64,000 nt of DNA, from contig CAWFAD010000008.1 in assembly GCA_963813815.1 (NCBI GenBank), forward strand, positions 160,001-224,000, read 5' to 3'. This document shows, one piece after another, positions 5,067 through 9,933 of this stretch. The notes under the pieces are model-generated. The model saw only the letters and a list, made by a program, of their open reading frames with translations, was not told where the DNA came from and ran no database searches. The position numbers and the translations under genes are program-made. The number at the start of each line of letters is the position of its first letter. Position 1 is the stretch's first letter. The DNA is from an uncultured bacterium. Lineage in GTDB: Bacteria > Krumholzibacteriota > Krumholzibacteriia > Krumholzibacteriales > Krumholzibacteriaceae.

Positions 5067-6629
5067 TCAAGGGGCTTCGCCGGGGCGGGGCTGCCGCGCT
5101 CCGAAGAGCACGAGATCGCCCGCGCCGTAATAGACGCGTATCTCCGTTTGGAAGTCGCCGCAGCCTTCGAGCGACTTCATGTCCTTGACGGACGAGAGAA
5201 ACAGCTTCGACGGCTCCGCGCGCAGGGCCGCGGCGAGCGCCGCGGGCTCCTCGATCGGATCGTCGAAGGCGCGGTTGCCGTAAAAGAGCATCCGGGCGCC
5301 CTGCTCGCGGACCGGCTGCCTGAAGCTCCCGATCCGCGCGCCTTCGGGCGTGATGCGTCCCGCGACGAGCGCGATCTCCCGGATCGGATCGGCGCTCGCG
5401 CGCCTCAGGCTCACGAGCGTCGCAACGACGAACAGCATGAGGAGGCAGAAGAGCGCCGTCAGAACGCTGTTCACGACCCACACCCGCTTCATCGGGTGCC
5501 TCCCCCGCCGCAGCGCCCAGCGGGCGATCTCGCGCGAGGCGAGCAGGGCCGTGAACGGGGCGACGGCGAGAAACGCGCTGACCGGCTCGGCGCCCGAGAG
5601 CGCGAGCGGCACGAAGATCGCCGCGAGGAACACGAGGATCGCCGAATCGATCCCGCCCGCGAGCGAGGAGCGGCGCCGATCGCCCCGGAGGAAGAGAATC
5701 CGAGCGACGCCGATCGACGCCGGAATGGACCAGGGAATGGACCGCAGCCACACGTTCGCCGCCGATCCGAGAAAATCGGCTCCGGCGCCCGGGCCGGGCC
5801 GGACGAGCCCGGCGATCGGCGCCCAGAGCGGGCTCCCGAAGAACCCGCCGCTCCGCTGCGCCGCGGGGACGAGCCACAATCCGCCGAGCGCGACCCCCGC
5901 CGCCGTCGCGGCCAGAAACGAGGGCATGGTCCAGATCCGCCGCCTGCTCCGCTCGACGGCGCCCGCGGCGGCCGCGCCCGCGACCGGCAGGAGCCCCGCC
6001 GCCCCGACGCTCAGGATGCCGCCCGCGATCGCCGCGCCCCAGAGGATCGCGCCGCCGCGCCGCTCGGGAAGGTACAGCCAGCCCAGCATCGCGAGCGCCG
6101 CGAACATCGCGAAGGGAAGTCCGGTCGTGACGTGCGGGGCGAACCGGCCGAAGAGCGGGGTCGAGGCGAGAACGATCGCCGCCAGCACCCCGACGGCCGC
6201 CGGGAGCGTGCCCCAGCGCGTCGCGCGCGACGCCTCCCGCGCCTCGGCCGCGGCTCCCTCGTGCGAGGCGAAGTCGCGCGAGGCTTCACGCCCCGCGACG
6301 AGGAGCACCCACGCGACGGCTATGGAGAGGAGGACGAAACCGAGCCTGGCGGCGAAATCGCTCGCGCCGAGAAGGAGAAAAAAGAGCGACATGAGCCACG
6401 GAGCGAGGGGCGGCGTGTCGTAGGCGGGCGCTCCGTTGAACTGCATCGGCAGCGGCCTGCCCGTGACGACGATCTCCCGGGCGGTTTCGGCGAGCGCCGC
6501 CTCGTCGCCGGGGGGAAGCGCCCCGTCCCACGTGCCCCAGACGGTTATGACGAGGGCGGAAAAAAAGAAGAGGAGGACGAGTATGTGCCCTCGACCCTCC
6601 TCTCCTGCGAAAAACGGAAGCTCTGCCAC
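5067..6629 (-). CDS. GT-C (ArnT/PMT, GT39/GT83-like) membrane glycosyltransferase
   Basis: GTG start with a GGGAGG SD. DE motif (GDEAALAETARE), 'YDTPPLAPWL' and 'AARL' segments, many transmembrane stretches. Confidence 0.75.
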   Translation of the reverse strand: MAELPFFAGEEGRGHILVLLFFFSALVITVWGTWDGALPPGDEAALAETAREIVVTGRPLPMQFNGAPAYDTPPLAPWLMSLFFLLLGASDFAARLGFVLLSIAVAWVLLVAGREASRDFASHEGAAAEAREASRATRWGTLPAAVGVLAAIVLASTPLFGRFAPHVTTGLPFAMFAALAMLGWLYLPERRGGAILWGAAIAGGILSVGAAGLLPVAGAAAAGAVERSRRRIWTMPSFLAATAAGVALGGLWLVPAAQRSGGFFGSPLWAPIAGLVRPGPGAGADFLGSAANVWLRSIPWSIPASIGVARILFLRGDRRRSSLAGGIDSAILVFLAAIFVPLALSGAEPVSAFLAVAPFTALLASREIARWALRRGRHPMKRVWVVNSVLTALFCLLMLFVVATLVSLRRASADPIREIALVAGRITPEGARIGSFRQPVREQGARMLFYGNRAFDDPIEEPAALAAALRAEPSKLFLSSVKDMKSLEGCGDFQTEIRVYYGAGDLVLFGARQPRPGEAP

Positions 6630-6672
6630 GCCGCGCCTCCCTGCGTTCGGTACGGCGCGGAGTATACGGGAA

Positions 6673-6885
6673 TCAGCGCTCCCCTTCCAGAAATTGTTGC
6701 AGCTCGCGGATCGTCTTCGCCGCGTCCGCCCCGTACAGGGCGATGAGATTGCCCAGGGACCCCCAGGCAGGCGTCCCTCATCTCAGGCAGACGACGCCGC
6801 GGCTCATGAGGAACCCGATCGAAGCGGGATACGCCTCGACGAGCTCCTCGACCGTCATCTCGGCGGTGATTGCGGTCTTCTTCAT
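6673..6885 (-). CDS. DUF1858-like small redox protein with an in-frame UGA, probably selenocysteine (CxxU motif)
   Basis: Not in the ORF track. Translation: MKKTAITAEMTVEELVEAYPASIGFLMSRGVVCLR-[TGA 6780-6778]-GTPAWGSLGNLIALYGADAAKTIRELQQFLEGER*. GGGAGGGAG SD upstream. The DUF1858 pattern (IT..MTV.EL...YP....FL...G..C..C) continues across the TGA, and a SECIS-like hairpin follows. Confidence 0.85.
6751..6768 (-). promoter_or_regulatory. Candidate bacterial SECIS element
   Basis: mRNA GCCUGGG-GGUC-CCUGGGC forms a 7-bp stem (two G-U pairs) with a GGUC apical loop. There are 16 nt between the UGA and the loop. Confidence 0.7.
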
Positions 6886-6912
6886 GCTCGGCTCCCTCCC
6901 GTCGTGGCGGCG

Positions 6913-7245
6913 CTACTTCGCGAGCGCCTTGGTCAAGAACTCGTTCAGAAGATCCTTCGGAACGGCTCCGGACATCGAATTGACCTCCGCGCCGCCCTTG
7001 AACACCTTGAGCGTCGGAATGCTCATGATGCCGTACTGAATCGCGATGTTTTGGCTCTCGTCCGTGTTGAGCTTCGCGAATTTCACCTTCCCGGCGTATT
7101 CGCCGGCGAGCTCCTCGAAAACCGGCCCGAGAAACTTGCACGGTCCGCACCACGGCGCCCAGAAATCGACGATCACGGGGATATTCGATTCGAGCACTTC
7201 CGCCTTCCAGCTCGTTTCGTTCACATGAATTGCGTTCGCCCCCAT
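6913..7245 (-). CDS. trxA: Thioredoxin
   Basis: VDFWAPWCGPC and the SIPT cis-Pro motif. ATG at 7245 follows GAGGAGGAG. Confidence 0.96.
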   Translation of the reverse strand: MGANAIHVNETSWKAEVLESNIPVIVDFWAPWCGPCKFLGPVFEELAGEYAGKVKFAKLNTDESQNIAIQYGIMSIPTLKVFKGGAEVNSMSGAVPKDLLNEFLTKALAK

Positions 7246-7289: not shown

Positions 7290-7643
7290 CTACCGCTTCC
7301 GCGCCCGCGGAACGCCCTCGCACCGATTGAGGCAATCGAGCATGCGGATGACGTTTCGCTCGGCGAGGCGGTAATAAATGTGAGAATCCTTCCGCTGGCT
7401 CCGCACGATGTTGCTCAGCCGCAGAATCTTGAGCTGCTGCGACACGAGCGACTGCTTGAGCCCGGAGAGGCCGCAGAGGTCCGTCACGGTCCTCTCCCCG
7501 CGGGTGAGGATGTTCACGAGACGCAGCCGCGCCGGGCTCGCGAGAGCCTTCAGCACGTCGGCGAATCGCTCGATCTCCCCCGCCGCCAGGGGCTCGCGCG
7601 TCTGCCGCGCAACCGCTCGTTCCAGCAATCCCTCTTCCATCAT
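7290..7643 (-). CDS. ArsR/SmtB-family transcriptional repressor
   Basis: LKALASPARLRLV...SLVSQQLKILR...IYYRL winged helix. Cys residues in DLCG and the C-terminal DCLNRC. Confidence 0.92.
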   Translation of the reverse strand: MMEEGLLERAVARQTREPLAAGEIERFADVLKALASPARLRLVNILTRGERTVTDLCGLSGLKQSLVSQQLKILRLSNIVRSQRKDSHIYYRLAERNVIRMLDCLNRCEGVPRARKR

Positions 7644-7677
7644 GATATTAATATATCATAATATCACAATGGGTCAA
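7643..7677 (-). promoter_or_regulatory. arsR promoter with an overlapping inverted-repeat operator
   Basis: TTGACC (7677-7672), 16 nt, then TATATT (7655-7650) with an extended-10 TG, then 6 nt to the ATG. A perfect inverted repeat TGATATTA (7643-7650) N8 TAATATCA (7659-7666) forms an AT-rich patch in GC-rich DNA. Confidence 0.75.
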
Positions 7678-7752
7678 GAAAAATTCCCGCGCCGGTCCGG
7701 GGATCCCCTTTTCCCCCTTGCCTTGCGGTTGGCAAACTGCAACCATGGCAAC

Positions 7753-9933
7753 ATGATGCGCCTGCCGGTTCTTTTCGCCGCGCTGCTCCTCGCCCTTTCC
7801 GCTCCGGCCTCGCCGGCGCCGGGAACCCGTCCCCGCGTCGGCCTCGCCCTCGGAGGAGGCGGCGCGCGCGGGCTCGCCCACATCGGCGTGCTCAAGGTGA
7901 TCGAGGAGGCGGGGCTCCCCGTGGACGTCGTGACGGGCACGAGCATGGGAAGCATCGTCGGCGGCCTCTACGCGATCGGCTACACGCCGGCCGAGATCGA
8001 GCGGATCGTGCTCGAGGCCGATTGGCCGGAGCTCTTCAGGGACCGGCTCGCGCGCAATGAGCTTCCCATGAAAAATCGGAAGCGCGACGACCGTTACCTC
8101 GTCTCCTTCCCCGTCTCGAAGAGGCGCGTGCGCCTTCCCTCGGGCCTCATCGGCGGGCAGAGGATTTACGATCTTTTCGTGCGGCTCGCCTGGCCCGTTC
8201 TCGAGACGGACGATTTCCGCCTGTTTCCGAGATCCTTCGCCTGCCTGGCGACCGACATCGAAACGGGGGACGCGGTCGTTTTCGATCGCGGCTACCTGCC
8301 CGACGCGATGCGGGCGAGCATGGCGATACCGTCCGTCTTTACGCCGGTGCGCATCGGCGGGAGGCTCCTCGTCGACGGCGGTCTCGCGCGCAACCTCCCC
8401 GCCGCGGACGCCCGGGCGCTCGGCGCGGACATCGTCATCGGCGTCGACGTGAGCAGCGATCTCGCCGGCGCCGACGAGCTCGAATCGTTCATCGACATCC
8501 TCAACCAGACGCTCGACATCGCGCTCAAAACCAACAACGCCGATCAGGCGGCGCTCTGCACGATCTTCCTCGCCCCCCGGCTCGACGAGTTCCGGAGCAT
8601 CGACTACGATCGCGCCCGCGAGATAATCCGGGCCGGGGAGACCTCCGCGCGCGAGCGTCTCGACGATCTGCGCGCGATCGCGGATTCGCTCGACGGCCTC
8701 CCGCCGGAGGGGCCCTCCCCCGGCCCCGTCGAGCGCGGCCCCGTGCGCGTGGACGAGATCGAGGTGCGCGGACTCCGGGACGTCGCGGAGCGCTTCGTTC
8801 TCGCCGAGCTCGGCATGCGGCCGCCGCAAACGGTCACGGCCGACGGGCTCGAGACGGCCATGCGGCGGCTTTTCAGCAGCGGCTACTTCACCGGCATCAG
8901 GTACCGCTTCGAGCAGATCCCCGCGGGACGCCGGCTCGTCGTCATCGTCGAGGAAGAGAGTGGCGTGACGCTCAACGCCGGCCTGCGGTACGACTCGCAC
9001 TGGCAGGCGTCGCTCCTCCTCAACGCGACCGTCCGAAATCTCCTCGAGCACGGCTCGCAGTTCGATTTCGATCTCCTCTTCGGCGAACGAAGCCGTCTCG
9101 CCGCGGCGTACGCCCTCCATACGGGCATCCGGCGCAGCGCGGGGGTTCGCGTCGAGGCCGACTGGCTCGACGACGCCGTCGACGAGTACCGCGACGCCTC
9201 GCTGGTGAGCCGCGCGGAGGTGTCGAGCGTGCGGGCCGGGATGCTCGTCGAAACCCTTTTTTCCCGCGTCCTCTACTCGGCGGCCGGGCTCAACGTCGAA
9301 TGGTACGATATCCGGCCCGAGATCGCGCCCGAGACGGCGGTCGCCGAATCGGGCCGTCTCGCGTTCTTCTCCGGCGACCTGTGGTTCGACACGCTCGACC
9401 GATCGTCATTCGCGCGCCGCGGCGTGTCGTTCCGGCTCCGCGGCGAAAAGGCGCTCGCCTCCCTCGGAAGCGACGCGTCGTTCGAGCGGGGATACGCCGC
9501 GGCCCGCGTCGCCGTGCCCGTTCACCGGCTCGTCACGGCGCGCGCCGACGTCTTTTTCGGCCTCGCCGGGGGCGAGAGCATCCCCCCGCACTACCGCTTC
9601 TTCGTCGGCGGGATCAACTCGTGCGTCGTGCTGCAGGGAGATCGGACGTCGGCCTTCTACGGCTACCGCCACCAGGAGCTCGCTGGGGAGAACGCTTTCA
9701 TGGCCGCCGTCGACGTCCAGATCGAACCGTACTCCGGCTGGTACGTGACGCTGCGCGGAAACGCCGGAAACGCCGCCGACGACCGGAGCGACCTCTTCGG
9801 CGGATCCCTCGTTCGATCGGGCGGCGCTCTGCGCCTCGGGGCCGATACGCCCGCGGGGCCCGTCGAGATTTCCCTCACGTACGGCGAGACGGCGGATTTC
9901 GGCGTGTTCTTCGACGCGGGATTCGCCTTCTAG
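7753..9933 (+). CDS. Patatin-like phospholipase with POTRA domain and Omp85-type beta-barrel (PlpD/type Vd-like)
   Basis: Signal peptide. Patatin motifs GGGGARG, GTSMG and DGG. POTRA-like segment and a barrel region ending in GFAF. Confidence 0.88.
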   Translation: MMRLPVLFAALLLALSAPASPAPGTRPRVGLALGGGGARGLAHIGVLKVIEEAGLPVDVVTGTSMGSIVGGLYAIGYTPAEIERIVLEADWPELFRDRLARNELPMKNRKRDDRYLVSFPVSKRRVRLPSGLIGGQRIYDLFVRLAWPVLETDDFRLFPRSFACLATDIETGDAVVFDRGYLPDAMRASMAIPSVFTPVRIGGRLLVDGGLARNLPAADARALGADIVIGVDVSSDLAGADELESFIDILNQTLDIALKTNNADQAALCTIFLAPRLDEFRSIDYDRAREIIRAGETSARERLDDLRAIADSLDGLPPEGPSPGPVERGPVRVDEIEVRGLRDVAERFVLAELGMRPPQTVTADGLETAMRRLFSSGYFTGIRYRFEQIPAGRRLVVIVEEESGVTLNAGLRYDSHWQASLLLNATVRNLLEHGSQFDFDLLFGERSRLAAAYALHTGIRRSAGVRVEADWLDDAVDEYRDASLVSRAEVSSVRAGMLVETLFSRVLYSAAGLNVEWYDIRPEIAPETAVAESGRLAFFSGDLWFDTLDRSSFARRGVSFRLRGEKALASLGSDASFERGYAAARVAVPVHRLVTARADVFFGLAGGESIPPHYRFFVGGINSCVVLQGDRTSAFYGYRHQELAGENAFMAAVDVQIEPYSGWYVTLRGNAGNAADDRSDLFGGSLVRSGGALRLGADTPAGPVEISLTYGETADFGVFFDAGFAF

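Follow-up and report, generated by a model that had tools for sequence, protein, structure and literature searches.

A DUF1858-like selenoprotein gene overlooked by annotation in a Krumholzibacteriaceae genome, with a likely genus-level change from cysteine to selenocysteine

A stretch of 64,000 nucleotides from contig CAWFAD010000008.1 (assembly GCA_963813815.1; the whole stretch is called the window here) of an uncultured member of the Krumholzibacteriaceae almost certainly carries a selenoprotein gene missed by annotation. The gene comprises 70 codons on the minus strand between trxA and an ArnT-like gene (Table 1) and, read with TGA as selenocysteine (Sec, U), it translates as MKKTA...VVCLR-U36-GTPAWGSL...LEGER-stop, the only TGA triplets in frame being the one at codon 36 and the terminal one. 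Our best overall explanation, which we hold with reasonable confidence, combines Sec decoding of this UGA, a conversion from Cys at the level of one genus and a thioredoxin-linked redox role for the product. The initial annotation had described the frame, its neighbours and its strong Shine-Dalgarno sequence without stating a strand, and all three descriptions were borne out, the plus strand of the same interval giving a nonsense translation. Its remark that ORF calling had missed the gene agrees with the public protein collection, which holds a 35-aa fragment and lacks the full-length version (C for U). Three further fragments ending C-x-R occur among 150 cluster representatives, and truncation of this kind makes the Sec branch invisible to protein searches. 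A codon-usage model trained on the same genome gave positive in-frame values for both gene halves (9.0 and 5.2) and negative values for the other two same-strand frames; one reverse frame reached 5.0 on one half.

Table 1. Features of the selenoprotein locus, in window coordinates.
Feature	Position	Strand	Evidence or remark
70-codon DUF1858/TIGR03980-like gene with C33-x-x-U36	6673..6885	minus	Translation, profile match, predicted fold
In-frame TGA, codon 36, predicted selenocysteine	6778..6780	minus	TGC/TGT in 17/17 homologues outside the genus
Cys33 codon, first residue of CxxU motif	6787..6789	minus	Translation
Shine-Dalgarno-like GGGAGGGAG	6892..6900	minus	GGGAGG ends 9 nt 5' of ATG
SECIS-like hairpin, +10 to +27 after UGA	6751..6768	minus	Identical in 7/7 genus Sec genes
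trxA, thioredoxin (WCGPC), 27 nt upstream	6913..7245	minus	TIGR01068 above cut-off
ArsR/SmtB-family regulator, first gene of putative operon	7290..7643	minus	Model match above cut-off
Sigma-70-like promoter TTGACC-16-TATATT upstream of arsR	7650..7677	minus	Consensus match only, 10/12
Possible promoter of downstream gene, TGGAAG-17-TATACT	6661..6689	minus	Proposed by eye; below scanner threshold
ArnT-like / PMT_2 membrane glycosyltransferase gene	5067..6629	minus	Conserved downstream neighbour

Profile scores that are significant and yet lie under curated cut-offs place the product in a divergent DUF1858-like subfamily. The only Pfam family matched is PF08984, at 27.1 bits against a cut-off of 32.2 (E 4e-6), and TIGR03980 matches residues 6-62 at 34.1 bits against 44.95, a cut-off that Cys orthologues of the same subfamily also fail to reach. 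Among 13 aligned members 12 match PF08984 at E up to 0.01, and many of the listed homologues carry precomputed PF08984 assignments. Judged from the predicted structure (pLDDT 78.7), the fold is that of DUF1858/ScdA_N, the top fold matches being 2K53 and 2K5E (both Z 8.4), the YtfE N-domain 5FNN (Z 7.5) and 2FI0 (Z 6.3), followed by a next match at Z 3.8. Foldseek alone gave no match at E up to 0.001, its best being 2K53 at E 0.06. The DUF1858 membership proposed in the initial annotation is thus upheld by the fold and by the E value but not by the Pfam cut-off. The accompanying label "hybrid-cluster-associated" is uninformative for the present copy: neither a prismane (hybrid-cluster, PF03063) nor a hemerythrin gene was found in the genome assembly, which is 90.8% complete, and PF03063 was also unmatched in 39 neighbouring ORFs, hand-picked mostly from 132 listed. 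The domain also occurs in tandem repeats: P0123 has two copies within its 132 aa, and P0266, of 446 aa, has four or more matched copies.

The protein shares its fold with the TIGR03980/DUF1858 Cys proteins 2K53, 2K5E and 2FI0, and its positions 33 and 36 align with the Cys pairs of the first two. It differs from these proteins in having Sec for the second Cys, a G-x-P-x-W-G sequence after the motif, and a location in a putative arsR-trxA operon in a genome where no hybrid-cluster gene was found. The ScdA_N (DUF542) domain of YtfE and ScdA also has the same fold (5FNN, rmsd 2.3 over 60 residues) and carries its redox-active Cys site in the corresponding region; the accessible text of PMC9052748 describes the YtfE Cys pair as passing electrons from thiol reductants to the di-iron site. 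Unlike that domain, which has a vicinal CC and 15% identity to the present protein, ours has CxxU, and the di-iron hemerythrin fusion partner of YtfE has no counterpart among the genes found in this genome. Elsewhere, DUF1858 receives only brief mention, in a nitrate-respiration protein (PMC6282519) and as an NnrR-regulated gene (PMC6710368), in the portions of those papers available to us.

Gene order around the locus is conserved. Genes for arsR and trxA lie upstream in all 12 order-level orthologues (7 Sec, 5 Cys), and the ArnT-like gene lies downstream in 11, the remaining locus ending early. A functional link between the ArnT-like gene and the selenoprotein gene is probably absent; the candidate promoter of the former overlaps the last codons of the latter. 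Nine genomes of the genus gave no DUF1858 match. Six of these retain only the last few codons after trxA, and the other three have, respectively, an assembly gap between the gene ends, a contig end at trxA and no trxA match. In the six deletion loci (L113-L118, from G005, G013, G002, G003, G006 and G008) the junctions, just after trxA, differ from one another, which suggests more than one deletion, and the 3' piece that is kept resembles a promoter of the ArnT-like gene. Deletion in six members of the genus marks the gene as accessory, and since trxA is retained in the same genomes, adjacency is no proof of partnership. Among more distant homologues, 4 of 12 have another thioredoxin-fold gene directly downstream, as judged from the 39 hand-picked ORFs scanned. 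Diverging from arsR is a Patatin-POTRA-Omp85 fusion (window 7408-9933, plus strand) of PlpD-like type; the first ~115 codons of this ORF overlap arsR on the opposite strand, so its true start is probably later.

We posit that the product would be a 70-residue cytoplasmic selenoprotein of DUF1858/ScdA_N fold in which U36 acts as the reactive nucleophile. This residue would alternate between a selenol and an oxidised form, joined to C33 as a selenenylsulfide or bound to a sulfur or nitrogen species as an adduct. The oxidised form would be reduced again by the thioredoxin encoded upstream, in an operon putatively co-transcribed under the ArsR-type regulator. Because the gene is often lost, the protein would be an accessory redox relay or scavenger. 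Among the 150 cluster representatives the first Cys is lost in 14 and the second in only 2, a bias that singles out position 36 as the more important of the pair. A small relay or scavenger recycled by TrxA under ArsR control seems to us somewhat favoured as the function, on the evidence of gene neighbourhood, fold and residue conservation.

The main rival to this redox-relay role accepts that Sec is inserted and takes C33-x-x-U36-G as a knuckle that binds Zn, Fe, a toxic metal or an Fe-S cluster and is probably shared by two monomers. The protein would then carry or sense metals or clusters, under control of the ArsR regulator. CxxCG is the usual pattern of zinc and rubredoxin knuckles, a zinc-finger model gives a weak match over residues 29-40 (E 0.05), and the upstream regulator is above the cut-off of a metalloregulator ArsR/SmtB model. 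Fusions of DUF1858 to SufT or the Fe-S maturation domain DUF59, recorded for four proteins in the accessible part of PMC4982691, point in the same direction. On the other hand, the 14 of 150 representatives that are without the first Cys but keep the second suit a single reactive thiol better, and thioredoxin-fold neighbours recur. We therefore regard metal or cluster binding as unlikely, though a serious contender, and retain the redox relay as the preferred function.

The distribution of TGA and Cys codons at position 36 follows the boundary of the genus. When 208 genomes of the phylum were searched with a profile, 26 matched and 24 of these were kept; the two weak matches dropped (G196 and G053) comprised one without the motif and one with an ScdA_N-like CC motif. 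Codon 36 is TGA in 7/7 genus genomes that carry the gene, our own included, and TGC or TGT in all 17 homologues from other genera, as would be expected from the initial proposal that the UGA encodes selenocysteine. A TIGR03980 search gave 37 matches in 35 of the 208 genomes, and internal TGA codons were confined to the same seven. Of 1,684 protein matches, the 120 listed all have CxxCG and none is closer than 64%; the protein collection would hide Sec forms, so these matches show the Cys background and not the absence of Sec elsewhere. An eighth Sec gene (L147), adjoining trxA and the ArnT-like gene on a metagenome contig, is a real member and the only one among 121 loose-pattern metagenome matches listed, in 120 loci. 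The initial annotation had also raised the possibility that raw reads would show TGC or TGT. The TGA is common to the six other genus genomes and L147, and it is covered by contigs of two DNA sequencing runs from different studies for which no difference is listed; on one side of the TGA these contigs extend for fewer than 31 bases, so they lend weak support. Two RNA-labelled runs yielded no listed piece across the TGA and give no information on expression. In a single-protein scan of species genomes three short matches were spurious, and one true orthologue (L017) was not counted separately, as it may duplicate a genus genome. A plasmid search for the gene gave no match.

Homology continues past the TGA. 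Against a profile of 120 Cys-only homologues, themselves found with a profile that included the present gene, the segment of residues 37-70 by itself reaches 25.3 bits (P 5e-10), compared with 48.0 bits for the part before the UGA and 2.3 bits for the best of 200 shuffled controls. The seven Sec genes have 42-66 of 69 residues in common and show no indel, frameshift or stop after the UGA, their ends agreeing within one codon, unlike the flanking gaps, whose lengths vary among loci. Values of pN/pS are 0.63-0.71 after the TGA and 0.45 before it, so purifying selection looks weaker in the downstream part, as far as these related genes indicate.

A hairpin immediately 3' of the TGA provides a candidate bacterial SECIS element. 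The GCCUGGG-GGUC-CCUGGGC structure noted initially was found as described, with a 7-bp stem, a GGUC loop and 16 nt from the UGA to the loop; it can also be drawn as a GGG-GGU-CCC core with a triloop, and its energy is -9.8 to -11.5 kcal/mol. The consensus bacterial SECIS in the accessible text of PMC13188914, including the legend of its Fig. 2A, has a loop of 3-9 nt beginning with G, a stem of 4-16 bp, a spacing of 16-37 nt and an energy of at most -7.5 kcal/mol. The present hairpin lies within all of these limits; its differences from the consensus are a spacing at the lower limit, a competing fold that uses bases beside the UGA, and the lack of a conserved lower stem. When the bases right after the UGA are included, the minimum-energy fold is a different, unconserved hairpin, and the GCCUGGG hairpin is the minimum-energy fold only when they are excluded. 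Stability against shuffled sequences is not significant (z -0.7 to -1.0). Of 55,688 TGA triplets in the genome, 4,073 (7.3%) are followed at 16-37 nt by a hairpin that has a 7-bp stem and a loop starting with G; stricter limits leave 948 (1.7%), and the rates after TGY triplets are the same (7.3% and 1.7%). An Rfam scan over the locus yielded nothing meaningful, only three matches at chance level.

The hairpin being unremarkable alone, the case for it rests on conservation. Its 18 nucleotides form the longest invariant run among the seven Sec genes, the next longest being 10, and four-fold sites vary at 0/5 positions within it versus 8/15 elsewhere, a comparison that involves only five sites in related genomes. 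The same interval folds at -11.5 kcal/mol in all seven Sec genes versus 0 to -6.2 in all 17 Cys genes. All seven stem pairs are invariant in the seven genes, and covariation is accordingly nil, but L147 has two changed bases in the lower stem and refolds round the same GGG-GGU-CCC core at -11.3. Elsewhere in the lineage, selD hairpins (17 loci) mostly have a GGA-type triloop with GG in the loop, and those of a hydrogenase gene have a CGGGUA loop, likewise with GG. We suggest that a ribosome at UGA36 would cover the next few bases and so remove the competing fold, leaving the hairpin at +10 to +27, with GGU in its loop, to recruit SelB and Sec-tRNA for insertion of Sec. Taking codon pattern, conserved hairpin and downstream homology together, decoding of UGA36 as Sec through this hairpin is highly probable, and insertion in the cell would follow.

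If instead the TGA really terminated translation, the ancestor of the genus would have acquired a nonsense mutation, and what remains would be a gene in decay or a peptide of 35 aa, perhaps with coupling to an ORF whose ATG overlaps the TGA. Reduction of the gene to a 3' remnant in six genus members, a pN/pS nearer 1 after the TGA, the possible retention of the last codons for the overlapping promoter, and the frequent use of TGA as a stop in this genome (350 of 626 long training ORFs end in it) could all be accommodated. However, the TGA sits exactly on the most conserved Cys, 34 downstream codons stay free of frameshift and stop in all seven diverged genes while the gaps on either side change length, and the frozen hairpin occurs in TGA genes only. 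The shifted-frame ORF from the A-TGA overlap is 40, 78 or more than 500 aa long depending on the genome and diverges quickly, and it was rejected as a conserved gene since neither length nor sequence is kept. Termination at codon 36 is in our estimation very improbable, and we continue with Sec decoding. As a separate observation, the A-TGA overlap arises because the Arg codon before the UGA (window 6781-6783) is AGA in 7/7 genus genes, despite AGA making up ~3% of Arg codons in our genome; in G004 the frame of the resulting ATG enters the ArnT-like gene.

The genome encodes the machinery for Sec, as the initial annotation had supposed. Profile searches recovered selA (506 bits), selB (353) and selD (367), all above curated cut-offs, and a tRNA with a UCA anticodon matches Rfam tRNA-Sec RF01852 at 71.3 bits. 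This tRNA-Sec, canonical in form, is the sole UCA-anticodon tRNA among 48 tRNAs called; a second tRNA-Cys call, on contig C13, was set aside for its poor stem and lack of an Rfam match. That the UGA is instead read as Cys, Trp or Gly through a suppressor tRNA or variant code, which for Cys would yield a normal protein given the Cys of the homologues, is the least probable reading of all, because that single UCA-anticodon tRNA is canonical (though one more tRNA may lie in the part missing from the 90.8%-complete assembly), TGA is the commonest stop of the genome, and the selD, hydrogenase and DUF1573 genes contain TGA only at known or plausible Sec sites. Among 42 relatives searched, selA is present in 42 and selD in 40, and both also occur where the DUF1858 orthologue has Cys, with the exception of G037, which has no selD match. 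Genomes with the Cys form thus carry Sec pathway genes, and a missing pathway does not explain the Cys forms.

Other genes with internal TGA were observed in the genome. The selD gene is itself a selenoprotein gene with an in-frame TGA (G000:C10:174414-175340, plus strand; loci L003 and L028-L057), and several relatives have a second selD, free of TGA, whose open frame is much longer and may be a fusion. The gene for the large subunit of an MvhA-like [NiFe]-hydrogenase, adjoining an mvhD-type gene, has a TGA near G000:C5 42717 (minus strand; loci L025 and L082-L111) in place of the second N-terminal motif Cys (RICGV-U), its C-terminal motif being DPCFSC. The hydrogenase TGA is found in 19 of the 30 matches listed, namely in all 15 genus genomes with a match and in G018, G019, G022 and G037, and the site is followed by a frozen hairpin; only one such Group 3 hydrogenase sequence had previously been reported, according to the accessible text of PMC13582414. 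A 361-aa DUF1573 protein with PG-U-GC (TGA near G000:C16 33603, minus strand; L275) belongs to a catalogued UGC-type selenoprotein family, and no hairpin downstream of its TGA passed the filter. A short frame with VGDVC-TGA outside the window (G000:C8 125340, plus strand) passed the coding filter both before and after the TGA and has no SECIS-like hairpin; it is probably an antisense shadow of another gene.

In a quick tree (144 rows, 72 columns), midpoint-rooted and with neither bootstrap nor a secure root, the Sec genes group as a single clade among Cys forms with SH-aLRT 98. All of them read G-T/S-P-A-W-G-S-L after the Sec position. Among the 120 listed Cys matches, position 38 is E in 118, position 40 is A in 1 and position 43 is S in 11, and it is the codons for A40 and S43 that supply hairpin bases; a single Cys protein, P0012, known here as a protein sequence only, has AWGSL. 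None of five Cys orthologues at the same locus keeps the hairpin. The contrasting case is the hydrogenase of G020, which has Cys at the Sec site and retains the hairpin unchanged. The position of the Sec clade among Cys forms and the lack of a hairpin in the Cys orthologues indicate gain rather than loss of Sec, and we infer, from sequence comparison, that Cys gave way to Sec once, at the base of the genus. In the proposed history the ancestor would have carried CxxC-GEPVWGTL, and in the genus ancestor TGY would have become TGA with fixation of E38T, V40A and T43S, the latter two having given bases of the hairpin. We consider this history likely. The wider proposal, that a selenoprotein was born independently at the base of one genus within a CxxC-GEPxWG subfamily, its SECIS built within the coding sequence via residue changes beside the active site (V40A and T43S, alongside E38T), and that alleles from before the change, after it and after loss of the gene all survive, is one we put forward with fair confidence.

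The gene belongs to a catalogued family; it represents neither a new family nor a new decoding mechanism. The possibility, allowed for in the initial annotation, that Sec-containing DUF1858 proteins exist in other taxa proved correct, as a predicted CxxU selenoprotein of PF08984 (WP_012065717.1) is tabulated in the accessible parts of PMC9312934 and PMC13188914. Like that entry, the present protein has the DUF1858 domain, a CxxU motif with one Sec and a small stand-alone form; it may differ from WP_012065717.1, known here by its table entry, in that the present gene falls in the divergent CxxC-GEPxWG subfamily, below the Pfam and TIGR cut-offs. Within the phylum, the Sec form of this subfamily was found in one genus only, and its conversion was probably separate from that of the catalogued entry. 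No Sec form of the CxxC-GEPxWG subfamily is on record in the papers searched. Our literature search, for which subscription papers were mostly unsearchable and some supplements went unread, found no study of DUF1858 selenoprotein function, of this subfamily or of this lineage. As to a first report of Sec-DUF1858, the term "DUF" does not occur in the accessible text of PMC2398784, nor anything relevant in its supplement 1, and "DUF1858" does not occur in the corresponding text of PMC5029168 or in its five supplements.

For annotation, the finding corrects a record whose product is a 35-aa fragment. A selenoprotein family that is listed but uncharacterised gains a further lineage and probably a separate origin, and attention is drawn to position 36 as the reactive residue of the DUF1858 domain. 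What is new is a likely genus-level origin of Sec together with its SECIS element at a conserved arsR-trxA locus, where ancestral, converted and deleted alleles are found at one locus, a series that makes the de novo origin of a SECIS element easy to test in a reporter. If this reading is true, the alleles would form a small, complete natural series for testing how few mutations make a working bacterial SECIS and what a thioredoxin-linked domain of unknown function gains from Sec.
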